This document shows, in pieces, positions 5,395 through 64,000 of a DNA stretch of 64,000 bases. The DNA comes from a virus: the IMG/VR virus record IMGVR_UViG_3300028392_000036, positions 78,902 through 142,901 of that record. One strand, written 5' to 3'. The position numbers were made by a program, and so were the translations under genes. Below the pieces are notes generated by a model that saw nothing but the letters and a program-made list of their open reading frames with translations, was not told the DNA's origin and did no database searches. How positions within the stretch are numbered: position 1 is the stretch's first letter; each line of letters starts with the position of its first letter.

Positions 5395-5430
5395 TATAAA
5401 TAGAAGCGGTGCCAAAAACACCGCTTTTTC
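5395..5430 (+). promoter_or_regulatory. T4-type late promoter TATAAATA abutting a terminator-like hairpin
   Basis: TATAAATA 5395-5402; AAGCGGTG/CACCGCTT stem 5404-5426 followed by a T run. Confidence 0.65.
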
Positions 5431-36444: not shown

Positions 36445-36802
36445 TCTCAACGGTCGTAAAAAAGGCAAGGTCAAGTTTCGTAATGCAGACGAGGCTCGCA
36501 AGGCACGTGAATTAGATACCTCGTGGAAAGAATTAAAAAAGAAGTGGGACGTGGATGCTGAAGAAAAGCGTCGTAATCGTGCCTTGAAGGCCGAACCGCT
36601 TGATTATAAACTGACCACTCCTGCTGGTCGTAGCACCGCGCATATACCCAGTCTGTCAACTCCTGGTGGATCTACAGCACCTGTTTACAAAGTTTATACA
36701 GGTACCAAGGTCAAAGGTATTGCTACCATGCACAAGTCAAATGCTGTGCCTGTGTTCTCAAACGAAGAGGCTGTGGAGATTTCCAGAATGCGACGTGGAT
36801 GA
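36413..36802 (+). CDS. Conserved T4-like phage protein
   Basis: YTGTKVKGIATMHKSNAVPV. Confidence 0.8.
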   Translation: MSMHLHHPSLSLNGRKKGKVKFRNADEARKARELDTSWKELKKKWDVDAEEKRRNRALKAEPLDYKLTTPAGRSTAHIPSLSTPGGSTAPVYKVYTGTKVKGIATMHKSNAVPVFSNEEAVEISRMRRG

Positions 36803-37059
36803 AAGATCTGTATTCCACACCCGAAGCCAGACTGGACACTATACTGGGCGAGGTTAGTTTCTGGGCACAGATGCAACGATGCAGACTATCTGAAGAGGGT
36901 GAGAAGAATTGTCGCACAGGCGCAGACACAATCACATGGTTTAGAGACACTTGGGGCATACAACTGTTACCCTCAGATGATACCATATTTGGATTTCAGC
37001 GTGGAGTCAACATTGTGGATGAGCAAAAGTACATGATATTTTTATTGAAGTGGTCATGA
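36799..37059 (+). CDS. Small protein, ...F-L-L-K-W paralogue family
   Basis: IVDEQKYMIFLLKW. Confidence 0.7.
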   Translation: MKDLYSTPEARLDTILGEVSFWAQMQRCRLSEEGEKNCRTGADTITWFRDTWGIQLLPSDDTIFGFQRGVNIVDEQKYMIFLLKWS

Positions 37060-37097
37060 TTAAAAAACGTTTATTAACCTATAAGGGAGATTTTGTA

Positions 37098-37481
37098 ATG
37101 GGTGGTATGTGGGAAAAAGATGAAGTGGTGCGCCTGCTCAAAGGCGTGCCGGGCACACAATATCAAGAAGCAGACGATCAAGTCAAAGAACAGATGCGTG
37201 AGTGGATCCGTGGTCTGTTACAGAACAGCGCAATCAATGTAACATTCACCAAAGCCGACGGAACCGATCGTGACATGCTGTGTACTCTAGATCACAGTAG
37301 GATTCCGGTTAGCATAGCAAAACCAGTGCAGTCAGTAGATGGTATTGTGCGTGAAAGTCGGAAGCCTCGCAAAGAACCTGACCCACATAGTATTCGGGTG
37401 TTTGATTTGCAAAAACAAGAGTGGCGCAGTTTCCGTTTTGACAGACTCCGAAAGGTCACAGCCACCTTGGATTTCCAATAA
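37098..37481 (+). CDS. WYL_2-like SH3 beta-barrel protein
   Basis: VTFTKADGTDRDMLCTL, VFDLQKQEWRSFR. Confidence 0.8.
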   Translation: MGGMWEKDEVVRLLKGVPGTQYQEADDQVKEQMREWIRGLLQNSAINVTFTKADGTDRDMLCTLDHSRIPVSIAKPVQSVDGIVRESRKPRKEPDPHSIRVFDLQKQEWRSFRFDRLRKVTATLDFQ

Positions 37482-37491
37482 GTAATACTCA

Positions 37492-37710
37492 ATGGCAAAA
37501 GAAGATATTATAAACATGGAGGGTCGAGTAGAAGAAGTACTACCAGCCGCCATGTTCCGGGTAAAAATAGACAACATCAACAACGTGGTACTAGCACACT
37601 TATCCGGGCGTATGCGCAAGAACAACATCAAAGTCCTCTTGGGAGATCGGGTAGAAATGGAATTTAGCCCATATGATCTTACCAAGGGACGTATTACTCG
37701 TCGCAAATAA
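37492..37710 (+). CDS. infA: Translation initiation factor IF-1
   Basis: [43 protein letters not shown]. Confidence 0.97.
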
Positions 37711-37717
37711 ATACAAG

Positions 37718-38266
37718 ATGGAATTACGCAACCACATCAATCTTGTAGAAGCAAGCACCCGTCCAGCAAAACTGGAAACTACCCCTCTCCCTTACGGTGT
37801 CAAAGACCTTGAGCCTGTGATGAGCAGAGCCACTATCGACTATCATTTTGAACACCTAGCCAAAGGCTATGCAAAGCGTTACAACGCAGGAGAAGGCAAT
37901 GCGGATTTTAATCGTGCTGGCAGTTTTCTACACAATAAATTTTTCCCTCAGCTTCGGGCTCCCAAGGGCGCAAACAAGCCCCGCGGTGCAGTACTCGCGC
38001 TGATAGAAGAAAACTTCAAGACTTGGGAAGATTTCAAGGAGCAGTTTAAAGAAACTGCAATGAAGATCCAGGGGTCTGGTTGGGTTTACTTGAGCACTGG
38101 TGGTACAATCAAAACAATCCCCAATCATCAAGTTCGCACTGATATCTGCTGTTTAGTAGACTGGTGGGAACACGCCTGGAGTTTAGACTACCAGTGGGAC
38201 AAAGAAAAATACCTAGACAATATCTGGAAGATTATTGACTGGGACGTTTGTAACGAAAGACTATAA
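37718..38266 (+). CDS. Fe/Mn superoxide dismutase with capsid-targeting-like leader
   Basis: LPY...LEP, IDYH, LHNKFF, QGSGW, DWWEHA; TAAATA-N4-ATG at 37718. Confidence 0.88.
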
Positions 38267-38586
38267 TGATATTAGAAACTGGTGCTGTGGCTAAATTACG
38301 TGACCTAGTTGCTGAAGAGGGCAATCCTGGACTCATGTTACGAGTGTTTGTTCAAGGTGGAGGATGCTCAGGAATGAGCTATGGTTTCACATTTGAAGAA
38401 GTGCAAAACGAGGACGACTTTGACTTTGCGTATGAAGATGTACGGGTTGTAGTAGATAGCATGAGCATGCAATATCTACAAGGTGCCTCAATTGACTACA
38501 AAGAAGATTTGATGGGTGCCAGTTTTGTGATCAACAATCCACAGGCGCAAACCACTTGTGGTTGCGGAAGCAGTTTCTCAATTTAA
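38266..38586 (+). CDS. erpA: A-type Fe-S carrier (ErpA/IscA)
   Basis: [20 protein letters not shown]. Confidence 0.9.
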
Positions 38587-39686
38587 CTGTAGTAAGCGAT
38601 TGTAAAGTCTCTCCAACTACCGCTTTGATAAACCTGCGGTAAATTACTAGTAGTATTGTAAACCATATCCCCATTGCTTGGAGACAACGCATCAATTTGA
38701 GATTGTGTTAAGTTAGGCAATCTAAATGCACTAGTAGTTCCGGTGCTAATCACAGTGTTAGCAATCACCACATCAGCAATAATAGTGTTAGATGTAGTAA
38801 TATTACCAGTAGCAGATATACTGCCAGTGGACGAAATATTGCCACCACTCACATTACCAGTTGTTGAAACAGGACTACCAGCAGGAATAGTTACATTACC
38901 AACAAAGTTTGCCCCGTAAACATTACCAATTGCACTTACTGTTCCACTGGTTAAAAGATTGCCCCCGGTGATATTGCCGGTGGTGCTCATTGCGCCACCT
39001 GCTGGTGGGATCACATTGCCAACAAAGTTTGCACCATATACATTGCCACCTGCGGACAATATTCCTGTGGTTACTACATTACCAACAACATTACCAACAA
39101 TATTACCAACAACATTACCAACAAAGTTTATGCCGGTGATGTTGCCACCTGCTGATATTGTGCCGACACTGGTAATATTACCTCCTGTAATATTACCCCC
39201 TGACGTGACCGATCCACCAGCACTTACTATACCAGCTGTGAGTAAATTACCGCCGGTGATGTTGCCAACTGAAACAATTGAATTGGAACCTCCCAGTTGA
39301 TTTAGAACAAATGCTGTGGTAGCAATTTGAGTTGTAGAAGTGCCATTTGCGGCAGTGGGTGCTGTGGGTGTACCAGTAAATGCAGGACTGGCTTTTTGTG
39401 CCTGAACATAATCTTGACTGGCCAATGCTGACCAGGCATTGGCGCTGTTGTATGCAGAAAGAACGTCTGTGGAACTGTTGTACCAAAGTTGTCCTAGAAT
39501 TGGTTGCAATGGTGCAGTTGAGTTGGCAAAATTTTCCAACAAATACACGTAGTTTTCGTTTTCGTAGGTACCGTAATCTGTTACTGCCCGGCCTACTAGG
39601 GCCAAGTCTGTGGCGGTGGTGTTAACAGTACCGTCTGCAACGATTGCAATTACATTTCCACGGCTGTTGTTGATAATATATGACAT
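38583..39686 (-). CDS. Tail-fibre/baseplate-associated structural protein
   Basis: [11 protein letters not shown]...[24 protein letters not shown] repeats. Confidence 0.8.
39076..39124. repeat. 12-nt tandem repeat (VGNV/I)
   Basis: ACATTACCAACA-like unit x4. Confidence 0.8.
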
Positions 39687-51519: not shown

Positions 51520-54426
51520 ATGTCATCAAACATCGTAACCATAAGCGATTTTGCAATAAATTTAAATTCTGGGGCAAATACCCTGGTAGTTACCGGTGCA
51601 GTCAGTGCCACAGGTAACCTAATAACCACTGGATATTTGATAGGCAACGGCTCACAATTAACTGGTATTATTACTGCCGCTGGTAACCCAACAATTGCCA
51701 ATGGCACATCAAATATATTTGTTGCAAATTCCAGCAACATTACCTTGGGTGTGGCCGGTAGCACAGTTGGTGTATTTGCATCAACAGGCGAATATGTAAC
51801 TGGACTTATTTCAGCAAGTGGAAACGTAATCGCAGGCGGCGCATTAAGTGCCGCTGGCAATGTAAGTGTGGGCACCAGCGGTATAGTAATTATTGCCAAC
51901 GTGGCCAATGCAACTGGCGCCGGAACTGGTGCATTACAAGTACAAGGTGGTGCTTCTGTCAGCAAAGATTTATGGGTTGTGGGCAACATTTATGCCAGCA
52001 ATATTGTGGGTACAACTGCCAACGTGATCACTATCGAAGACCCACTGGCATATTTTTCCAGCTCCAGCACATATCCATACAATTACGACATTGGCTTTTA
52101 CAGCCATTTTACAGGTGGCACAGGCAACACATATCAACACACAGGTATTGTGAGAGATTTCAATGATGCCACTTGGAAAGTATTCAGCAACGCAGGCGAA
52201 CCCTCAGGCAGTGTGGTTACCTTCAACAGTGACACAATATATGATGCTTTGTTGGCAGGCAACATTACCTCTGTAGGTATTGTGAGTGCCTCGGGCAACG
52301 TGGTTGGCAACAATGTCACGGGCGGTAATGTATTAACTGGCGGGATAATGAGCTCCACCGGTAATGCCATTCATGGCAACATATTAACTGGGGGTTTAAT
52401 ATCCAGCACTGGTAATGCAATTGGTGGCAACATATTAACTGGTGGGGTAATATCCAGTACTGGTAATGCCATTCATGGCAACATATTAACTGGTGGCATT
52501 GTGTCCAGCACCGGTAATGCCATTCATGGCAACATATTAACTGGGGGTTTAATATCCAGCACCGGTAATGCAATTGGTGGCAACATATTGACTGGTGGCG
52601 CAGTTTCGGCTGTTGGCAATGTAACTGGTGCTTACCTTATTGGCAACGGCAGCCAAATAACCAATGTATTCATTGCTGGCTCAACCGGTGGCGCTATTAT
52701 TAGCGGAACATCAAATGTAATCACAGCATACAGTAGCAATGTTACTGTGAGTGTGGGTGGCACATCAAACGTCGCTACCTGGGCAACCACTGGCGAATAC
52801 ATCGCTGGGGTCATAAGTGCTTCAGGCAATATTACCGGCAACTATATCTTAGGCAATGGCTCACAACTGTCTGGAGTTATTACAAGTGTGGCCAATATCA
52901 ACTCAGGAACCTCAAATGTAACTGTGGTAAGTTCAGGTGGTAATATTGCTATCAGTGTGGGTGGCACATCAAATGTTGCTTATTTTGCCACCACTGGCGA
53001 ATACATCACAGGATTGTTAAGTGTCAGCGGTAATGTGATTCCTGGTAACGTGACCACAGGCGGATTGGTCACAGCAACTGGTAACATAACTGGTGGCAAT
53101 GTATTGACAGGTGGGCTGATTTCAGCAGGCGGTACTGTAACTGGCACAAGTCACTTGGGTGCAGTCGTTTCGGTAACAGCCAACATCACTGGTGGTAATG
53201 TATTGACTGGCGGTATTGTAAGTGCCACAGGCAACATTGCTGGTAACTATATTTTAGGTAATGGTAGTCAGCTGACTGGATTAGCGGCAACATATGGCAA
53301 CGCCAACGTTGTGGCCAACCTGGCAGCACTGGGTTCAAACCCAGTATCAACTACAGGTAACATAACAAGCGGTAACATACTAACCAGTGGCCTGATAAGT
53401 GCTACTAGTACTATCACAAGTACGGCAAACATCACAGGTGGTAATGTATTGACTGCTGGATTGATCAGTGCTACAGGCAATATATATGGTGGCAATGTAA
53501 TCAATTCGGGTATTAGCAGTGTTACTGGTAATATCATAGGTGGCAATATTATTACTGCTGGATTGATATCAGCCGCTGGCACAGTATCTGCATCAAGTTA
53601 TTTGGGTGCTGTGGTAAGTGTTACTGGTAACGTAACCGGTGGCAACATTTTGAACAATGGATTAATTTCTAGCACTGGTAACAGTACCGCAGGAAACTAT
53701 CTAACTGGCGGATTGATATCCGCAACTGGCACAGTAACTGGATCAAGTCATTTGGGTGCTGTGGTAAGTGTAACAGCAAACATTACAGGTGGTAACGTAT
53801 TAACTGGCGGAATAGTCAGCGCCAGCGGTAACATTGCAGGCAACTACATCAGCGCCGCTGGTAACATTGCAGGTGGCTATATCAGCGCCAGTGGCAGTAT
53901 TGTTGCTACCGGCCTAACAGTATCAACGGGCAACGTTACACTGGGCAACATCATCAACGCCAACGGCAATGCTGTGGGCAACATTGGTAGCTCAAGTGCA
54001 TATTTCAATACCATATTTGGCAAAGCAACCACAGCACAATATGCTGACGTTGCTGAAATGTACACAGCCGATGCGGCCTACGCTCCTGGCACAGTGGTAG
54101 TGTTTGGTGGCTCACAAGAAGTCACACTCAGCACACAAAGTCACGATGTTTGCATAGCAGGTGTGATATCTACAAACCCTGCTCATTTGATGAACTCCAC
54201 ACTTGTGGCCGAACACACAGTGGCAGTGGCGTTGCTGGGACGAGTACCGTGTCAAGTGACAGGACCTGTGCAAGCCGGCGACCGAATGGTATCAAGTGAT
54301 ATTCCGGGTGTTGCAGAACGTATGGATATTGCTCGATATCAACCTGGCACAATTATCGGCAAAGCACTAGAAAACTACTCAGGCCCGGGCACAGGCACAA
54401 TAGAGATAGTGGTAGGTAGACTATAA
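51520..54426 (+). CDS. Long tail-fibre-like protein with C-terminal chaperone-like domain
   Basis: GNITGGN repeats; C-terminal YADVAE...GTVV...GRVP...IGKAL. Confidence 0.8.
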   Translation: MSSNIVTISDFAINLNSGANTLVVTGAVSATGNLITTGYLIGNGSQLTGIITAAGNPTIANGTSNIFVANSSNITLGVAGSTVGVFASTGEYVTGLISASGNVIAGGALSAAGNVSVGTSGIVIIANVANATGAGTGALQVQGGASVSKDLWVVGNIYASNIVGTTANVITIEDPLAYFSSSSTYPYNYDIGFYSHFTGGTGNTYQHTGIVRDFNDATWKVFSNAGEPSGSVVTFNSDTIYDALLAGNITSVGIVSASGNVVGNNVTGGNVLTGGIMSSTGNAIHGNILTGGLISSTGNAIGGNILTGGVISSTGNAIHGNILTGGIVSSTGNAIHGNILTGGLISSTGNAIGGNILTGGAVSAVGNVTGAYLIGNGSQITNVFIAGSTGGAIISGTSNVITAYSSNVTVSVGGTSNVATWATTGEYIAGVISASGNITGNYILGNGSQLSGVITSVANINSGTSNVTVVSSGGNIAISVGGTSNVAYFATTGEYITGLLSVSGNVIPGNVTTGGLVTATGNITGGNVLTGGLISAGGTVTGTSHLGAVVSVTANITGGNVLTGGIVSATGNIAGNYILGNGSQLTGLAATYGNANVVANLAALGSNPVSTTGNITSGNILTSGLISATSTITSTANITGGNVLTAGLISATGNIYGGNVINSGISSVTGNIIGGNIITAGLISAAGTVSASSYLGAVVSVTGNVTGGNILNNGLISSTGNSTAGNYLTGGLISATGTVTGSSHLGAVVSVTANITGGNVLTGGIVSASGNIAGNYISAAGNIAGGYISASGSIVATGLTVSTGNVTLGNIINANGNAVGNIGSSSAYFNTIFGKATTAQYADVAEMYTADAAYAPGTVVVFGGSQEVTLSTQSHDVCIAGVISTNPAHLMNSTLVAEHTVAVALLGRVPCQVTGPVQAGDRMVSSDIPGVAERMDIARYQPGTIIGKALENYSGPGTGTIEIVVGRL
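52360..52599 (+). repeat. 51-nt (17-aa) tandem repeat, about 5 copies
   Basis: Units start at 52360, 52411, 52462, 52513, 52564 (GNAI(H/G)GNILTGGxxSST). Confidence 0.9.
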
Positions 54427-54570
54427 ATGTCAACGATTGTAATAGAAGGCGGAATCACCATTGAGACCGGTATCTACATTGGTGTTGACGTGGATCTCTC
54501 TGTGTTTTTTACAACAGAGGACAGCAATCAACTGATCAGTGAAACAGGTGATAGTTTCATCGAGGAATAA
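54427..54570 (+). CDS. Small acidic structural protein, 47 aa (not in ORF track)
   Basis: MSTIVIEGGITIETGIYIG...FTTEDSNQLISETGDSFIEE; fills the gap between fibre genes. Confidence 0.7.
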   Translation: MSTIVIEGGITIETGIYIGVDVDLSVFFTTEDSNQLISETGDSFIEE

Positions 54571-54572
54571 TA

Positions 54573-55712
54573 ATGAGTAGTAATATTAAATTTAGTCAAC
54601 TGCCCAATCTAGGCACTATCACAGCCAACACCACAGTACCGGTGGTTGCTGCCGGTACCAACTACACCATCACAGCGGCCAATTTACAAAGTTATGTAAA
54701 CAGCAGTACTGGCAACGTAACTGCCAACTATTTCATTGGTAACGGATCACAACTCACAGGATTACCGGCAACATATGGCAACGCCAACGTTGTGGCCAAT
54801 TTGGCTGCGTTAGGTTCTAACCCTGTATCAACAACAGGAAACATAACCGGCGGCAACATCCTTGGTGTTAATAATATCAGCACTGGAACTATCACACTCA
54901 CAAACGGTGCAGTGATTCTAGACACAGCTGATGGCGCAGTGGCCTTTGGTAGCGGTGCTGGCATTAGCCCACAAGGCGAATACGCAGTGGCCATGGGCTT
55001 TAGTGCTGGACAAGGTTCACAGGGCAATGCCGCAGTGGCTATCGGTGGTGGGGCTGGTGAAACCTCACAAGGCGACTCAGCGGTGGCCATTGGTTATCAG
55101 GCTGGTGGAACCAATCAGGGCAACAATTCAATCATCATCAATGCTACTGGCACGACATTAGATCAAACCACAGCCAACACATTCACAGTGGCCCCGGTCC
55201 GCAATGATGTGGCCAATACGAGTCAAGTCATGTTCTACAACACCACTTCAAAAGAAATCACATATGGCAATACTATAAGTGTAGCTGGCAACATCACAGC
55301 CGCTAATTTTGTCGGTAATGGTAATACCTTATCTAATGTTGCTACTCAGGTAACCGGATCCTGGACAGTGCCTACAGGCAACAGCACTCAGAGTTTTACT
55401 GTGGCGGCCAGCAAGACCTACCTCATGTGGGTTGATTGCAATATCCCCAATGGTATCTTGGCTTGGAACGCCACGGCTACTGTTACCAATACCAATGTGC
55501 CTGTGGTGGGTGCTCAGTATGCCTGGGTCTACAACGGTGGTGGATCGCCCATTGACTTTACCAGCATACCCAATCAGTTCGTAGGCACAGCAAACTCCAT
55601 AGTTCGTAGCAGTACGGCACCTAGCGCAACTACCAATAGATTTGACTTTGGTATCAACAACACCAGCGGCGGTAATGTCACTGTGCGTTACGGTTGGACC
55701 AAAATAAGTTAA
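54573..55712 (+). CDS. Tail-fibre-like protein with YadA-head-like repeats
   Basis: IKFSQLP N-terminus; QG.xAVAIG..AG repeats. Confidence 0.75.
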   Translation: MSSNIKFSQLPNLGTITANTTVPVVAAGTNYTITAANLQSYVNSSTGNVTANYFIGNGSQLTGLPATYGNANVVANLAALGSNPVSTTGNITGGNILGVNNISTGTITLTNGAVILDTADGAVAFGSGAGISPQGEYAVAMGFSAGQGSQGNAAVAIGGGAGETSQGDSAVAIGYQAGGTNQGNNSIIINATGTTLDQTTANTFTVAPVRNDVANTSQVMFYNTTSKEITYGNTISVAGNITAANFVGNGNTLSNVATQVTGSWTVPTGNSTQSFTVAASKTYLMWVDCNIPNGILAWNATATVTNTNVPVVGAQYAWVYNGGGSPIDFTSIPNQFVGTANSIVRSSTAPSATTNRFDFGINNTSGGNVTVRYGWTKIS

Positions 55713-55793
55713 TGTATAAATCATGGTCAACTCACCGGCCGCCCTGCAGATCGTGAAATAACGCTTGAACTAAAATGTACTAAATAAACTATC

Positions 55794-56408
55794 ATGCAAA
55801 CACACAACAAACATGGCGTCCGCGATCGAGATCTATTCAAAGATCACACCGACTACTGGCAGGTAGCCGACAACATTCGCGACATTTACATGAGTGAGGG
55901 CAGTTTAACTACCCTGCTGGACTTTGAGCGTGTGCTGGACGAAGTAGATATCTACGCATTCAAGAACTGGGACATTGGGGAACTGGTGGACGGTCCCGAA
56001 ATTGGCAAATACCGTGTGACCTGTACCTTTATGTGGCCGGAAAAGCTCATGCCCGATCCCCGTGGTGGGCGTAGACTTTTAGCATTTGACTGCGAAGTTG
56101 AATACCAACGCAAAGAAATAAAGATCCCCATTAAAATTACAGACCCCTCAGATTATCGCCCGGGCACACACAAAGCCAAGCTGACCACACGTGATGTGTG
56201 GCTAGTAACAATCACCATGCCCAAAGCACTCATGAACGACATCCGCACAGGATCAATCGAAATGGAAGATCAGGACATTGATCTAGACGAACTGGATCAG
56301 GCCTACGAAAACGATTTGGACAAAGAGGAAAATCAAAGCGATGAACAAGCCAACGATGCTCAACAATCCCTTCAACAGCAATCAGCCGCTACCGGCCCTG
56401 CTGTCTGA
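55794..56408 (+). CDS. Conserved late protein
   Basis: LLDFERVLD, NW..GELVDGP, MPDPRGG; TAAATA-N7-ATG. Confidence 0.8.
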   Translation: MQTHNKHGVRDRDLFKDHTDYWQVADNIRDIYMSEGSLTTLLDFERVLDEVDIYAFKNWDIGELVDGPEIGKYRVTCTFMWPEKLMPDPRGGRRLLAFDCEVEYQRKEIKIPIKITDPSDYRPGTHKAKLTTRDVWLVTITMPKALMNDIRTGSIEMEDQDIDLDELDQAYENDLDKEENQSDEQANDAQQSLQQQSAATGPAV

Positions 56409-56931
56409 GGGTCTGCAATATAAAGACCTAGAGGGCATGATGAAGCCCACGCTTCACGTGGACGAATTTGCGGCCAAAATGGGTGATGACGATGATATCA
56501 TTGTGCTATCATTCTTTGTGCGTGATTTAACAGCCGCCAAAGACCTAGTGGGATGGTTTGAAAAGGGCTATGACTTTGTGTTGGATGCCGATCGTAGCCC
56601 AGGTGAAATCAAGCCCAGCCGTTATCTAGTGTACTTAGAACTGCGTCGCCGTAGATCAGCACCACAGCACGTACAAACGCTGTTGGATGATTTATCGACA
56701 CTGACAGAATTTGCCCCAGAAGAATGGCGATTCAAATACGATGGTCGAGACCATGAATGGTCTGAAAAGACCTTTAGTGAACTGGTGCCATTAACTCCGG
56801 ATTCTTATAGAGCCACGCACGAAGATGACCTAAATGATGTGCGCACAGCGGCGGGTATTGCACCCAAAAAGATTCACGAAAAACTGCCGGATGATGTTAA
56901 ATCATTGCAGAGCATGGCCGGGATACGATAA
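56356..56931 (+). CDS. Conserved late protein
   Basis: LLSEGL, VDEF..KMG, FEKGY.FVLDAD; ends LQSMAGIR. Confidence 0.75.
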   Translation: MLNNPFNSNQPLPALLSEGLQYKDLEGMMKPTLHVDEFAAKMGDDDDIIVLSFFVRDLTAAKDLVGWFEKGYDFVLDADRSPGEIKPSRYLVYLELRRRRSAPQHVQTLLDDLSTLTEFAPEEWRFKYDGRDHEWSEKTFSELVPLTPDSYRATHEDDLNDVRTAAGIAPKKIHEKLPDDVKSLQSMAGIR

Positions 56932-58739
56932 TGAAGATAAACGACGTACTAGTAGAATTTGCACCCGCAGGTGGCGGAGGTTCAGGCAACTACTTTCAAG
57001 CCTTGGCCTCGGCCTGGTACAATGGTACCTTTGACACAGGCAGCCTGCAAAAAGGCATCAAGAGTCAAGAAGACGTGGAACGCTTGTTGAATCGCGGCAT
57101 TGTGTGCCCAGACGGCAAGACTCGTAAACTGCATATTGATTACAACTCAGACTTTGACGGTGTGGAAATCTACAGTGATGACTACTATGAATACGGTGAT
57201 CACGATGACACCATAGACAGTCGCACAGGCCAAAAATGGGGGCCATATGACTTTATGGCATTCTCAGATGATGAATTAAGCGAAGGTATTAATGAAAAGT
57301 TGGGTGCCAACAGACCCAGTCTAGGCAACCGACGCGATCAATTCCGGAACCTGCACAAGATGCGTAAACAACGTGGGCTAAATGAATTCTCAGCCGATGG
57401 TGGCGACAGTGGTGGCGACAGTGGTGGCGAAGACGATGCACTACGCAAATACGCTCAAATGTGGTGGACCGGAGACGAAGCAACGCAAATGCAAATTGAA
57501 GCCGCACTGGCCCGTATGGGCTGGGAAATCGGTGAGGACGAAGGCGGCTACGACAACGGCGGTGTGTTTGTGGTACGTGCTGGCGATGAAAATGGCAAAA
57601 GTTATACATCATGGCCCGCAGAAGATTTGTCAGAAGGTGTGGCGGAAGGCTCGTTAGATGAAAAGTCAACAAGCCAGGCACAGTTCCGCACAATGGCGGC
57701 AGCCGCACACAATCCTGAATTTGCTCGTAAAGTAGGCATCAAACAGAGTGTGGCACGAGAGTTTAATCAGGCCGATCGAGGGCAAGACTACAAGTCATTG
57801 CCAAAAAAGGCCACCGAAGGCGCTCCGGTCACAGCAACTCCGGGATCCATTGAATCCGGTGGAGCGGTGGACAATTTCAAACAACAAATGACCAACAATA
57901 CTGAAATTGCTTACAAAAAAGGCATGGCGGAAGCCGCTTTTATGCACAGCGGACAAAGTGCTCCATTCAGTGGTGTTGGTGGCACTGCAAAATACGGGTA
58001 TGGCCTAAACGATATACGAAATGCAAGGGCAAAAAAACCAGAAATTGATGCCAATCTGAGAAAATTTAAAGCATGGATCAACGGTGGCCCAAAGCCAGTA
58101 GATATAAATGATGTAATTCAATCTGTTGAAGTATATTTTACAAATATCAAACCGCCGTCAGATGCTAGAGTTTCAACGGCATTTAATCAAATATTAAATT
58201 CACAAGGCCAAGGTTGGGTCGCTAATAAAAATCAAGCCATGCTATTAAATCCATCATTAGACGCAGCCATTAGAGAACCATTGCCCAATCAACGTGCTGG
58301 AAATAATCAAAACGCAGATGGGTACCCTATCGCTCCTTCAAGGCCAATGGCTGGACAAGCGGCACAACCAGCACAAGCGGCACAACCAGCACAACCAGCA
58401 CAAGCGGCACAACCAGCACAACCAGCACAAGCGACATCAGCACAAGCACCAGCGGCAGCGGCAAATTCAGCAAATCCTGTAGGTAAGAAATTTAATACTG
58501 CAAATGCTACAACTGTTACTCCGAAACCAATAACAAGACCAGCATTACCAATGCGAGAACAAGATACTGTAGAAAGCAAAAGCAAGCCCGCAGAAAAAGA
58601 AGCCGACTATGGTGATGATTATCAGCAAATGGTTTTGCGCTTGAAAAAACTGGCCGGTGCAGGTCCATTAAAGACTGTGTACGATCCGCAAAAGCGTGTG
58701 TATCGAAACATGCCCACAGCACAACAGCCCAAAAAATGA
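56931..58739 (+). CDS. Modular putative virion-internal polyprotein
   Basis: MKINDVLVE leader; unrelated blocks joined at LSE/INE/LNE/VAE/LDE/ATE/MAE. Confidence 0.7.
   Translation: MKINDVLVEFAPAGGGGSGNYFQALASAWYNGTFDTGSLQKGIKSQEDVERLLNRGIVCPDGKTRKLHIDYNSDFDGVEIYSDDYYEYGDHDDTIDSRTGQKWGPYDFMAFSDDELSEGINEKLGANRPSLGNRRDQFRNLHKMRKQRGLNEFSADGGDSGGDSGGEDDALRKYAQMWWTGDEATQMQIEAALARMGWEIGEDEGGYDNGGVFVVRAGDENGKSYTSWPAEDLSEGVAEGSLDEKSTSQAQFRTMAAAAHNPEFARKVGIKQSVAREFNQADRGQDYKSLPKKATEGAPVTATPGSIESGGAVDNFKQQMTNNTEIAYKKGMAEAAFMHSGQSAPFSGVGGTAKYGYGLNDIRNARAKKPEIDANLRKFKAWINGGPKPVDINDVIQSVEVYFTNIKPPSDARVSTAFNQILNSQGQGWVANKNQAMLLNPSLDAAIREPLPNQRAGNNQNADGYPIAPSRPMAGQAAQPAQAAQPAQPAQAAQPAQPAQATSAQAPAAAANSANPVGKKFNTANATTVTPKPITRPALPMREQDTVESKSKPAEKEADYGDDYQQMVLRLKKLAGAGPLKTVYDPQKRVYRNMPTAQQPKK
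58355..58433 (+). repeat. 9-nt tandem repeat (AQP/AQA)
   Basis: GCACAACCA and GCACAAGCG units. Confidence 0.9.
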
Positions 58740-58903
58740 CAAGACGCACAGCAAACGGTCGACCAGTTCCTGTGCTACAAGGCTCAGCAGGACCTGTAGC
58801 ACCCAACCCACATGTACCACCACCCATGCCCGCACAGCAGGCAATGACACGATTACCACAGCCTGTGATCAACATGGGACTGGGCCTGAAACTAAACCCA
58901 TGA
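58736..58903 (+). CDS. Pro-rich small protein, 55 aa (not in ORF track)
   Basis: MTRRTANGRPVPVL...; ATGA overlaps at both ends. Confidence 0.5.
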   Translation: MTRRTANGRPVPVLQGSAGPVAPNPHVPPPMPAQQAMTRLPQPVINMGLGLKLNP

Positions 58904-59103
58904 GAGCTAACGAATTCGTCACTGAGAAAAAGCGCATGAAGCGACTGAAAGAACTTACTTTTATGGGCCTGAGTCCTTGCACCAAAGACTGTTCAGGACA
59001 CCGTGCAGGCTACCGATGGTCAAAAGCACGTGGTGGTGTTAGCACAGCAAGCCCAAGCAACAGTTTTAACCGGGGTGCTGAAATAGCCAAGGCTGGCTAC
59101 TAA
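58900..59103 (+). CDS. Small protein with capsid-targeting-like leader
   Basis: MRANEFVTE; CTKDCSGHRAGY.W...SNSF..G. Confidence 0.7.
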   Translation: MRANEFVTEKKRMKRLKELTFMGLSPCTKDCSGHRAGYRWSKARGGVSTASPSNSFNRGAEIAKAGY

Positions 59104-62996: not shown

Positions 62997-63440
62997 ATGT
63001 GGATCTTACACTTTCTTCCTGACAGCATTATTCTTGCATTCTGTAACACTCTGTTATTCGCGGGCATTTTAGCCACCGCGGCAGGCTTTGTTGCGCATCG
63101 TATCCCAGGATTGTGGTCATATCAATTGGGTTTTAAACTGGGTGGTATTGCATTGCTAGTACTAGGCGTGTACTTTCGCGGTGGACTGGCTGTGGAAGAA
63201 ACCTGGCGTGAGCGTGTGGCTGCTGTAGAAGCAAGACTTGCTCAGGCTGAAAAGGCTTCAGCAGATGCCAATACAAAAATAGACACAAAGTCACAAAAGA
63301 AAACAACGCAACTACGCGAACGCACCACATACATCCGACAGTATGTGGACCGTGAAGTTGTCAAGTACGATAACACTTGTACAATTCCTGAACCATTTAT
63401 TCGGGCGCATAATGACGCCGCGGAGGCACCTAAAAAATGA
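62997..63440 (+). CDS. Rz-like inner-membrane spanin candidate
   Basis: N-terminal TMs, coiled coil, C-terminal C.IP..F...HN.AA. Confidence 0.65.
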   Translation: MWILHFLPDSIILAFCNTLLFAGILATAAGFVAHRIPGLWSYQLGFKLGGIALLVLGVYFRGGLAVEETWRERVAAVEARLAQAEKASADANTKIDTKSQKKTTQLRERTTYIRQYVDREVVKYDNTCTIPEPFIRAHNDAAEAPKK

Positions 63441-64000
63441 AAATAAATGATATTTTAAATGAACAGTGGAGTCAAAAATACAAGAGCAGTATCAACTGCT
63501 CACACCCCAAAGGGTTTAGTCAACGAGCACATTGTGCCGGCAAAAAGAAACACAACGAAAGTGTTGAAATGGAAATGGTCTGCGAAGACTGTGGCATGTG
63601 TGAAACACACGGTAATGTAATGGAGATTCGGAAGGGTCAGAAAGACTCAAACGGATATACACGTTGTTGGCCGGGCAAACACGCCGAAGGCACCAAAAAA
63701 GGCAAGAATGGTGGACAGGTGCGTAACTGTGTGCCCAATGAAAGCGTTAACGAAGATGGCAAGCGATGCATGCAATGCGGTATGATCAATTGCAAGTGCC
63801 CTGGCGATAGTTGCAAGTGCAAGCCGGTCAAGGGTTGGGTGCCTGGCAAAGGATTCCGCAAAGCCATGGACGATGCTGCCAGTCGAGAACTGGCTGAAGA
63901 GTTTGATCTAATAGAAAACATCATTGAAGGTATTGCCGCACAAAATGGTGTAGACGCCGAAGCAGTATGGGCGGACCTAGAAAGTCTCACAGAAGATGAA
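63437..64000 (+). CDS. Modular Cys-rich putative virion-internal polyprotein (runs off the window; not in ORF track)
   Basis: Own translation MKINDILNE-QWSQKYKSSINCSHPKGFSQRAHC...CWPGK...RNCVPNE-SVNE-DGKRCMQC... Confidence 0.8.
   Translation, partial: MKINDILNEQWSQKYKSSINCSHPKGFSQRAHCAGKKKHNESVEMEMVCEDCGMCETHGNVMEIRKGQKDSNGYTRCWPGKHAEGTKKGKNGGQVRNCVPNESVNEDGKRCMQCGMINCKCPGDSCKCKPVKGWVPGKGFRKAMDDAASRELAEEFDLIENIIEGIAAQNGVDAEAVWADLESLTEDE

Follow-up and report, generated by a model that had tools for sequence, protein, structure and literature searches.

The window, the whole stretch of 64,000 nucleotides that was analysed, is from an uncultured giant (jumbo) T4-like lake phage. An open reading frame at 56931-58739 on the plus strand encodes a protein of 602 aa and comes after tail-fibre-like genes. 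AlphaFold modelled the product as a nine-residue leader and five small confident domains. The leader and the joints had a pLDDT below 50; the joints were disordered and ended in hydrophobic-x-Glu. Several leader variants were present among family members, all ending in hydrophobic-x-E. The features of the locus and of two related genes downstream were as follows.

55794-56931, plus strand: two upstream genes in one unit with the polyprotein gene, homologues of virion proteins (PHROG 12928 and PHROG 13138, 'virion structural protein')
56931-56957, plus strand: leader MKINDVLVE, aa 1-9, similar to a capsid-targeting sequence, last residues L-V-E; pLDDT below 50
56958-57296, plus strand: block A, aa 10-122, more widespread than any other module, with an LSE-GINE end; pLDDT 83-95
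57297-57386, plus strand: small basic insert, aa 123-152, flanked by GINE and GLNE; low pLDDT
57387-57635, plus strand: block B, aa 153-235, with an F-S-A-D-G-G start after LNE and a DLSE end; pLDDT 88-96
57633-57650, plus strand: canonical linker DNA GAA GGT GTG GCG GAA GGC, encoding E-G-V-A-E-G, aa 235-240
57648-57662, plus strand: second site G-S-L-D-E, aa 240-244, directly 5' of block C
57663-57821, plus strand: block C, aa 245-297, small and helical, with a KSTSQAQFR start and a KKATE end
57822-57905, plus strand: block c, aa 298-325, GAPVT...NNTE; short, and found as a lone module elsewhere
57918-57935, plus strand: variant linker DNA AAA GGC ATG GCG GAA GCC, encoding K-G-M-A-E-A, aa 330-335
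57933-58559, plus strand: cassette D, aa 335-543, a rare insert with a helical domain, a Q/A/P-rich tail and a PMRE end
58575-58736, plus strand: block E, aa 549-602, the conserved C-terminal tail with motif L-K-K-L-A-G, a predicted helix and hairpin
58900-59103, plus strand: 67-aa gene with leader MRANEFVTE, whose body recurs elsewhere as a cassette at the C-terminus of polyproteins
63437-64000, plus strand: gene with leader MKINDILNE, whose first module lies inside polyproteins of other phages

All xxE sites that the original prediction had listed between unrelated blocks were located in the translation. With a slash after the Glu, the sites of the protein were LVE/F (aa 9), LSE/G (118), INE/K (122) and LNE/F (152) in the first part of the protein, LSE/G (235), VAE/G (239), LDE/K (244) and ATE/G (297) in the middle, and NTE/I (325), MAE/A (334), MRE/Q (543) and TVE/S (548) in the last part. 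Ten of the 11 [LIVMF]-x-E sites lay at domain edges. The two blocks said to open with E-F-(A/S)-x-x-GG were found at aa 9-17 and aa 152-160. The block after the second linker had been described as looking more AT-rich, and its GC content (0.39 at 57933-58202) was lower than that of block B (0.55). However, it was close to the genome mean of 0.44, so that blocks B and C are GC-rich and cassette D is no anomaly.

No recognisable function or fold was found for any block, and their role as effectors is therefore an assumption. Searches of Pfam and NCBIfam with the whole protein and with each block returned no family; polyvalent-type conflict domains (metallopeptidase, ADP-ribosyltransferase, ParB-like) were thus not detected by these searches in the 602-aa protein. 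A likeness of block C to DUF3008 was considered and dropped, as Pfam did not report DUF3008. In PHROGs, searched in the same way, only block C matched, to PHROG 16759 (E 2.9e-16). Using tblastn against 50,697 phage records, only aa 237-298 matched, in 121Q-like phages, phiKZ-like phages and one Stenotrophomonas phage; Phabio and 201phi2-1 were among the phages matched by block C. In 121Q, the corresponding region is the N-terminal part of gp51, whose annotation is virion structural protein, and the homologue in 201phi2-1 is gp383, which carries no virion annotation. The same search yielded no T4 match, including IPI, IPII, IPIII and Alt, and blastn of the locus against the phage collection gave no match. 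Foldseek with the whole model against PDB returned nothing at E ≤ 0.001. The model of block A reached a best Z of 2.9 in the PDB search with nothing in BFVD, and the ESM Atlas search gave no usable match. Seven long relatives showed only Amidoligase_2, DUF5872 and weak TAT_signal matches. Elsewhere in the family, there were cassettes with Tat signals, cassettes with zinc-finger-like modules and one amidoligase-like domain.

In about 1,600 relatives (50% cluster level), these blocks recurred in numerous combinations, with some permuted orders, and 32 block orders were counted among family members. Block A was also found internally in proteins of up to 1,648 aa, the order B-A was present in some relatives, and block E was C-terminal in most family members. 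Block c occurred elsewhere in the architectures A-c-B, c-A and B-c-E, with P0012 carrying it between A and B. Across relatives, every joint took inserts of 25 to 1,000 aa. These comprised 320 families, and 54 of the 85 recurring families were found between different partners. At the position of the canonical VAE/G linker, relatives held inserts of 50-560 aa with a linker copy on each side. The small basic insert was missing from close relatives in a MAFFT alignment, and DNA homology to four relatives ended exactly at 57296 and resumed at 57375 (blastn). Cassette D was missing from all four syntenic relatives and was present in P0209 alone (45% identity) among 257 family proteins compared, bounded there by QGVAE/ and RE/QGMAE/ and with different neighbours. 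The ends of blastn alignments fell on linkers in 28% of cases versus 4.5% expected. In L003 and L004, the flanking genes were 92-97% identical and the polyprotein gene was mosaic. As had been anticipated for other phages, order and partners differed: the homologues were not collinear, and modules were gained, lost and swapped at joints. Comparison showed that the addition, deletion and exchange of modules among related phages take place at the joints.

The sequence AAGGYRTGGCGGAAG, proposed to be common to two junctions, had exactly two matches in the window, 57634-57648 and 57919-57933; allowing two mismatches gave three matches versus 0.22 expected. Only one of the approximately 12 joints in the gene has the canonical DNA, GGT GTG GCG GAA (57636-57647). 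The second joint carries the variant GGC ATG GCG GAA, and the remaining joints are conserved as peptide only. In 258 family proteins, GVAE was the commonest xxxE tetrapeptide (308 vs 4.3 expected), and GMAE was found 106 times vs 1.9 expected. Together, the 414 G[VM]AE sites lay in 382 different contexts of 8+8 residues. The consensus linker of the family was CAA GGT GTG GCG GAA GGC, the DNA form of the commonest joint, Q-G-V/M-A-E-G, with third positions fixed. At 134 sites, none of which had been used to find the loci, GGT reached 92% (45% gene-wide), GTG accounted for 86% of Val codons (25% gene-wide) and the Ala codon was GCG in 84% (11% gene-wide). The DNA conservation was limited to about 18 nt. 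Two controls varied freely, namely the codons of LNE/FA joints and the conserved G/V/A/T/P columns of orthologous block A, in which the top third base averaged 0.70. Synonymous conservation of the linkers, which the original prediction had proposed to test, was accordingly seen at the G-V/M-A-E joint and not at L-N-E/F-A. Three outcomes had been named that would speak against the proposal, namely collinear homologues, freely varying linker codons and a protein that stays intact in virions; the findings on module order and on silent sites of the linker were the opposite of the first two.

The linker DNA is most likely kept fixed for short-homology recombination, and an RNA- or translation-level constraint may be the alternative cause. 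Only a few linker copies were present per genome, so exchange must be between genomes. Internal translation starts were considered, as the P3 codon of the linker is GTG or ATG. They were rejected, as the only Shine-Dalgarno-like bases lie directly against the codon and the codon at other joints is CTA, TTA or ATT. The 18-nt word might also actively direct sequence-specific exchange, much as an integron attachment site does but within coding sequence, and let giant T4-like phages trade ready-to-cut effector cassettes in frame. We regard this as unlikely. A dedicated phage enzyme or the phage recombination machinery may then use the word, and some cassettes may be injected and exported via the Tat pathway of the new host. 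Integron-like and other site-specific cassette systems have a symmetric recombination site with a recombinase gene beside it. A direct reading of the 18-nt word showed no inverted symmetry.

At the peptide level, the residues before module starts followed a common pattern. In distinct upstream contexts, P1 was Glu in 58 of 58 cases for block A, with L, V, I or F at P3, and in 41 of 41 for block B, with L, V or I at P3 throughout. Block C was preceded by [LI]-x-E in all 46 distinct contexts, and the WSQKYK module had Glu at P1 in all 15. Across module starts, P3 was L, I, V, M or F and P2 was free. V or M at P3 falls outside the strict L/I rule of T4. Block E was preceded by E-K-E or P-P-E, outside the L/I-x-E rule.

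Leaders and linkers were found in equivalent positions. The first module of the gene at 63437 followed GVAE/, QLDE/, LNE/ or VKE/ in nine other polyproteins, in the same register. The body of the 67-aa gene aligned with P0242 and P0253 at 58-60% identity (blastp); L-N-E was visible before the counterpart in P0242, and the P0253 alignment contained no comparable site. Thirteen internal Tat-like signals started shortly after an internal x-x-E, mostly two residues on, the deepest at residue 986 of 1,104. Such internal signals imply that release from the chain is needed.

A T4-type head module was identified in relatives that share the gene order and comprised a Gp23 capsid protein (E 2e-97), Peptidase_S77 of the gp21 family (88 bits vs a cut-off of 27) and a T4 portal. 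Peptidase_S77 was above the cut-off beside Gp23 and the T4 portal in G001, G002, G003, G006 and G008, and the gene order around the polyprotein in G002 was the same as in the window. G007 and G009 matched neither protease nor capsid protein and are uninformative on co-occurrence. Peptidase_S77 and the head module were absent from the window's own 143-kb record, which is a 41% fragment, and we therefore infer the protease of this phage from its relatives. Their capsid protein matched T4 gp23 in BLASTP (E 4e-44); its I-L-E and L-K-E fall a few residues off the T4 maturation site, not at the site. PA5oct virion proteins homologous to the neighbouring genes were detected by mass spectrometry, gp189 by ESI-MS/MS. 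The T4 late promoter TATAAATA was not found upstream of the gene unit, and only CTAAATA lay just 5' of the start codon of its first gene.

Cleavage at the hydrophobic-x-E joints is predicted and well supported by comparison, namely by the T4-type protease in syntenic relatives, the [LIV]-x-E preceding every examined module start, the equivalence of leader and linker, and the internal Tat signals. We consider it fairly probable that the 602-aa protein is a cargo polyprotein that is packaged in the head and cut by the protease, with its modules released and delivered. The nine-residue leader, perhaps helped by the scaffold-like C-terminal tail, would take the chain into the prohead core, where a gp21-type prohead protease would cut after Glu at each [L/I/V/M]-x-E joint, so that the folded modules A, B, C, c, D and E come apart into individual small proteins. 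Retained in the head once freed, they would pass into the next host along with the DNA, and the Tat-bearing modules of relatives would be exported to the periplasm after release. Short-homology recombination between co-infecting or replicating genomes would cross over at the 18-nt joint.

Loading and cutting would also be expected of an accessory of the prohead core or scaffold, with the pieces acting as filler that leaves the head before DNA packaging and never reaches the host. The prohead core proteins of T4, among them gp22, gp67 and gp68, offer a precedent for this reading: they undergo cleavage at many L/I-x-E sites, and most of the fragments leave the head (PMC9026906). Block E shares K-[KR]-L-A-G with the extreme C-terminus of scaffold proteins in three relatives, (I/L)-K-R-L-A-G-L, and the acidic protein beside the protease in L166 contains QGMAE. 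The K-R-L-A-G-L tail was not found in T4 gp22 and is thus specific to the clade. Such a filler role is nevertheless improbable given the modules, which are compact, well-conserved folded domains, and the Tat, zinc-finger-like and amidoligase-like cassettes elsewhere in the family. The gene is also distant from the head module (in G002, about 171 kb vs about 21-27 kb, i.e. about 140 kb apart) and near tail-fibre-like and virion genes, and fast module turnover fits conflict genes, not scaffolds.

An uncleaved beads-on-a-string virion protein, with the joints as flexible spacers and the DNA word as a recombination joint or translation signal, would account for the disorder of the joints and for their DNA-level conservation, which protease recognition cannot explain. 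Packaging without processing is known for the N4 virion RNA polymerase and for some polyvalent proteins (PMC5512222). A spacer should tolerate Asp, yet Glu followed G[VM]A 758 times and Asp five times, and Glu at P1 and L/I/V at P3 were invariant at joints whose codons drift. Moreover, the first residues of a module were identical behind leader or linker, and Tat signals 700-980 residues deep would be unusable in an intact chain. Taken together, this makes an uncleaved protein very improbable. Least likely of all is cytoplasmic processing, in which a protease of phage or host would cut the polyprotein inside the producing cell and nothing would be packaged; the modules would act late in that infection, and those with Tat signals would be exported at that point. 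The internal Tat signals require only that cleavage takes place somewhere and so agree with it, but the site grammar is the rule of the lineage's capsid protease, the leader is like the T4 capsid-targeting sequence, the neighbouring genes are virion-protein homologues and gp21-type proteases are activated inside T4 proheads.

If the cargo-polyprotein reading is true, one short sequence solves two problems: the peptide is a cut mark and the DNA a common in-frame joint, so that a module from any related phage can join without a break in the reading frame. Fast diversification of injected phage arsenals would be explained, and a very large pool of first-acting small proteins, about 1,600 clusters (50% identity) and hundreds of cassette families of no known function, would be at hand. 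The reading would predict a path leading from the capsid into the periplasm of the host, and it would supply a natural rule for designing T4-type capsids that carry several foreign proteins.

Among known systems, the 602-aa protein is classed as putative T4-style capsid-targeted cargo in fused-module form. The capsid-targeting sequence of T4 IPIII comprises 10 residues and is removed by gp21, which cuts after L/I-x-E, and it has been suggested as an evolutionary device for loading varied proteins (PMC9026906). Shared with T4 IPI, IPII, IPIII and Alt are the short leader ending in hydrophobic-x-Glu (here MKINDVLVE/F), a gp21-family protease in the lineage and unrelated cargo behind similar leaders. 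In T4, these are separate genes with one leader each, whereas here the modules are fused in frame with internal cut-site motifs, and the main joint is frozen in DNA and marks exchange points. RNA viruses also encode several mature proteins in one ORF, cut by a viral protease at short consensus sites. Their polyproteins differ in a fixed gene order and in essential replication and structural proteins, and lack combinatorial cassettes, a joint conserved at the DNA level and capsid-internal processing.

The polyvalent proteins of phages and conjugative elements (Iyer et al. 2017, PMC5512222) are likewise mosaic and multidomain, with quickly reshuffled domain sets; packaging and delivery along with the DNA are predicted for them, in some cases following proteolysis. 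They are recognised by known enzymatic domains, often with an embedded metallopeptidase for self-processing, in contrast to the modules of 30-200 aa here, which have no recognisable domain and a uniform joint matching the capsid protease. The word 'linker' is absent from the main text of that paper. A literature search on linker peptides returned only papers on alpha-synuclein and other unrelated subjects, and we found no paper describing the linker. Many internal head proteins of the giant phages phiKZ, 201phi2-1 and SPN3US are cut after Glu, behind a short motif, by a gp21-related protease (PMC9026906); they are paralogous families from separate genes, and we found no description of cassettes arrayed in frame or of joints conserved in DNA for these phages. 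Of all blocks, C alone has homologues in phiKZ-type giant phages.

The source record of 142.9 kb, whose final 64 kb make up the window, was rated 41% complete by CheckV and is therefore a fragment of a phage of about 350 kb. The polyprotein ORF at 56931-58739 (+) codes for 602 aa and overlaps the stop codon of the gene upstream. Two further genes belong to its unit. Both of their products match PHROGs with the annotation virion structural protein, and for one of them the homologue from Pseudomonas phage PA5oct was detected in virions by mass spectrometry. All the sites that the original prediction had listed in the gene, which it read as an in-frame cassette array, were present. Its 15-nt degenerate motif occurred in exactly two copies in the window, both within this gene. 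CTAAATA at 55770-55776, just 5' of the ATG of the unit's first gene, may be a late-promoter variant. The T4-form late promoter TATAAATA was present as a single copy in the window, at 5395.

An AlphaFold2 model of the 602-aa protein, built on an 81-sequence alignment, predicted five compact domains with confidence.

Compact domains of the polyprotein predicted by AlphaFold2
aa 17-122, domain A
aa 163-238, domain B
aa 248-285, domain C
aa 357-424, first part of domain D
aa 553-597, domain E

Model confidence was low for the leader (aa 1-15), for the joints and for D's tail, which is rich in Q, A and P. Of the 11 [LIVMF]-x-E tripeptides, ten were located at domain edges and one within a domain. 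No block matched a Pfam or NCBIfam family, a solved structure, a predicted viral structure or an Atlas cluster. Block C was the only block known elsewhere: it matches a 58-residue PHROG and makes up the N-terminal part of gp51 from phage 121Q, whose annotation is virion structural protein.

Relatives of the polyprotein numbered 626 in a word-indexed search and 1,579 when 1.8 billion cluster representatives were searched exhaustively with phmmer. Blocks were mapped on 257 sequences from both searches and on the window's own ORF. Blocks A, B, C, c and E were found in 32 different orders or subsets, with permutations among the relatives including B-A, A-c-B and c-A. Every joint carried inserts in relatives, ranging from 25 to about 1,000 residues, and block A was found as deep as residue 1,474 in a protein of 1,648 residues. 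Block masking left 320 insert families, comprising 235 singletons and 85 recurring families, 54 of which sat between different partners. Cassette D recurred in one of the 257 family sequences alone, P0209. There it was bounded by QGVAE↓ and RE↓QGMAE↓ (arrows mark predicted cut points), with neighbours entirely different from those in the window's gene.

In close relatives the gene order was kept and flanking genes showed 92-97% protein identity, with the polyprotein gene being mosaic. DNA homology to four relatives ran as far as 57296, where G-I-N-E ends, and restarted at 57375, where G-L-N-E begins. Further breaks fell at 57637-57663 (G-V-A-E-G-S-L-D-E) and 57906, with a restart at 58572-58593. 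Because of the block mosaics and these breaks at joints, the homologues are not collinear over their full length, in agreement with the original prediction. In insert-bearing relatives two joint copies flanked the insert, and the window's gene held a single copy there. Of the internal ends of blastn alignments, 28% lay at most 9 nt from a linker; the expected share was 4.5%. The evolutionary half of the original prediction, that modules are gained or swapped at linkers, was thereby borne out at the level of sequence comparison: modules are gained, lost and exchanged at joints.

GVAE was the commonest xxxE tetrapeptide of the family, with 308 occurrences observed and 4.3 expected. The 414 G[VM]AE sites were found in 382 distinct contexts with the consensus (E/K)-Q-G-V/M-A-E-G. 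Codon use was determined in the ORFs of 120 loci carrying the exact 18-nt word of this joint, counting only the further unique G[VM]AE sites in them, 134 in all. GGT was used at 92% of these sites (45% gene-wide), GTG made up 86% of the Val codons (25%) and GCG was used at 84% (11%). Loci retrieved by protein search gave the same picture. Information content dropped to background one codon outside the 18 nt on both sides. At the control joint L-N-E↓F-A, Leu and Asn codons were used freely. In conserved control columns of block A (Gly, Val, Ala, Thr and Pro; 13 orthologous copies, 80% identical), the top third base averaged 0.70, compared with 0.87-0.92 in the linker. Since both controls vary, the fixed codons of the main joint are unusual; the predicted constraint on linker codons holds for the G[VM]AE joint, with its fixed third positions.

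In the viral collection, at least 120 stretches contained the exact 18-mer and gave 119 distinct in-frame ORFs; in 596 Gb of prokaryote genomes 56 stretches contained it. Many of the prokaryote stretches were single matches in genomes of isolates from high-GC genera, for example Nonomuraea; the remainder were mostly single matches in metagenome-assembled genomes, with three on one contig of a Bacteroidetes MAG. The window's gene had the canonical linker codons at 57636-57647 only, the second joint reading GGC ATG GCG GAA. Linkers numbered only one to three copies per genome. T4-type replication depends on recombination, and the fixed DNA of the main joint is explained most economically by short-homology recombination between genomes. 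A dedicated enzyme, or a role at the RNA or translation level, is possible.

A T4-type head module was found in G002, a relative with the same gene order, and in other relatives.

Components of the head module
Portal protein, Portal_T4, E 2e-102
Acidic protein containing QGMAE
Peptidase_S77 (gp21 family prohead protease), above cut-off
Coiled-coil scaffold protein
Gp23 capsid protein, E 2e-97

The related records G007 (342,865 bp, rated 99% complete) and G009 (76%) had no match to Gp23 or S77; either these completeness estimates are misleading or the sequence examined is only part of the records. T4 gp21 cleaves after the Glu of L/I-x-E, residues 1-10 of IPIII, which end in such a site, are enough to load foreign proteins, and a change of Glu to Asp at this site blocks processing (PMC9026906). 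In the polyprotein family, the residue before the predicted cut (P1) was Glu in all distinct upstream contexts of block A (58/58), block B (41/41), block C (46/46) and a Cys/His-rich module (15/15). P3 of module starts was L, I or V, sometimes M or F, and P2 was free. This pattern was kept at joints with drifting codons, so selection acts on the peptide.

Two leader-bearing genes were also present in the window.

63437-64000 (+), gene with leader MKINDILNE, of the same type as the polyprotein's, extending past the window end; its first ~100 residues form the Cys/His-rich module starting WSQKYKSSINC
58900-59103 (+), 67-aa gene with leader MRANEFVTE

At least nine polyproteins from other phages contained the WSQKYKSSINC module after GVAE↓, QLDE↓, LNE↓ or VKE↓, in the same register. 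The body of the 67-aa gene (CTKDCSGHRAGY...) was the C-terminal cassette of family proteins P0242 and P0253, with 58-60% identity. Leader end and internal joint are thus interchangeable.

Thirteen different twin-arginine signals started shortly after an internal x-x-E, mostly two residues after, the deepest at residue 986 of 1,104. They combined the core RRGFLKG with a hydrophobic stretch, followed by a stretch usually rich in Ala; one was just under the Pfam TAT_signal cut-off. Complete signal peptides within polyproteins, directly after hydrophobic-x-E, were seen in L005:4995-6812 (+), P0055, P0085, P0092, P0111, P0157 and L019. In the window, the gene at 7126-6053 (-) opens with MKTLKEYINE, then STRRGFLKS. 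Such internal signals would be usable only with the chain cut upstream.

The P1/P3 grammar, the leader-linker equivalence and the internal Tat signals fit the gp21 L/I-x-E rule, and we infer from these sequence features that the chain is cleaved at joints and its modules released. The leader, possibly also the tail, would bring the chain into the core of the prohead, where the S77 protease would cleave it at each joint. The freed modules would stay in the head and later be ejected, and Tat-bearing modules would be exported in the new host. Less probably, the chain could be a prohead core filler that exits the head, be processed in the cytoplasm without packaging, or act as an uncleaved multidomain protein. 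The uncleaved reading is the one countered most strongly by three findings: Glu never varies and P3 stays hydrophobic at joints where codons drift, leaders and linkers are equivalent, and Tat signals lie inside the chains.

By analogy, cleavage and release from the polyprotein would work like the T-even internal proteins, but here many cargoes are fused in one frame with predicted internal cut sites. Mosaicism and predicted delivery are common to the polyvalent proteins (Iyer et al., PMC5512222), whose hallmark domains are absent from the window's polyprotein. Linkers are not mentioned in that paper, and a full-text literature search for the linker peptides returned nothing on phages. The family protein P0188 (1,348 aa) has an H-E-x-x-H motif at its start (residues 1-25) and an Amidoligase_2 match (E 2e-5, residues 825-914), and links the family to enzyme-bearing polyvalent proteins.

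Block E contains, within 58620-58660, L-K-K-L-A-G-A, the family consensus being V-K-K-L-A-G-L. Its K-K-L-A-G motif was the sole one among ORFs of at least 60 aa in the 143-kb record. The scaffold proteins of three relatives (L166:8661-9761 (-), L167 and L168) all terminate in (I/L)-K-R-L-A-G-L, and the K-[KR]-L-A-G motif was absent from T4 gp22. The block E motif and the scaffold C-termini may represent a common capsid- or core-binding tail.

Two large tail-fibre-like proteins made of G-N-(I/V)-x-G-G-N-(I/V)-L-T-G-G-type repeats are encoded at 51520-55712 (+), and a 1,272-aa relative of these adjoins the head module in L166. Upstream of the window, the source record holds long ORFs of 752 and 663 aa (G000:C1:7378-9633 and 36602-38590), each with a G-V/M-A-E site. 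The 752-aa ORF was homologous over several hundred residues (aa 1-626 across matches) to 18-mer-bearing polyproteins of the loci L094, L104 and L115.
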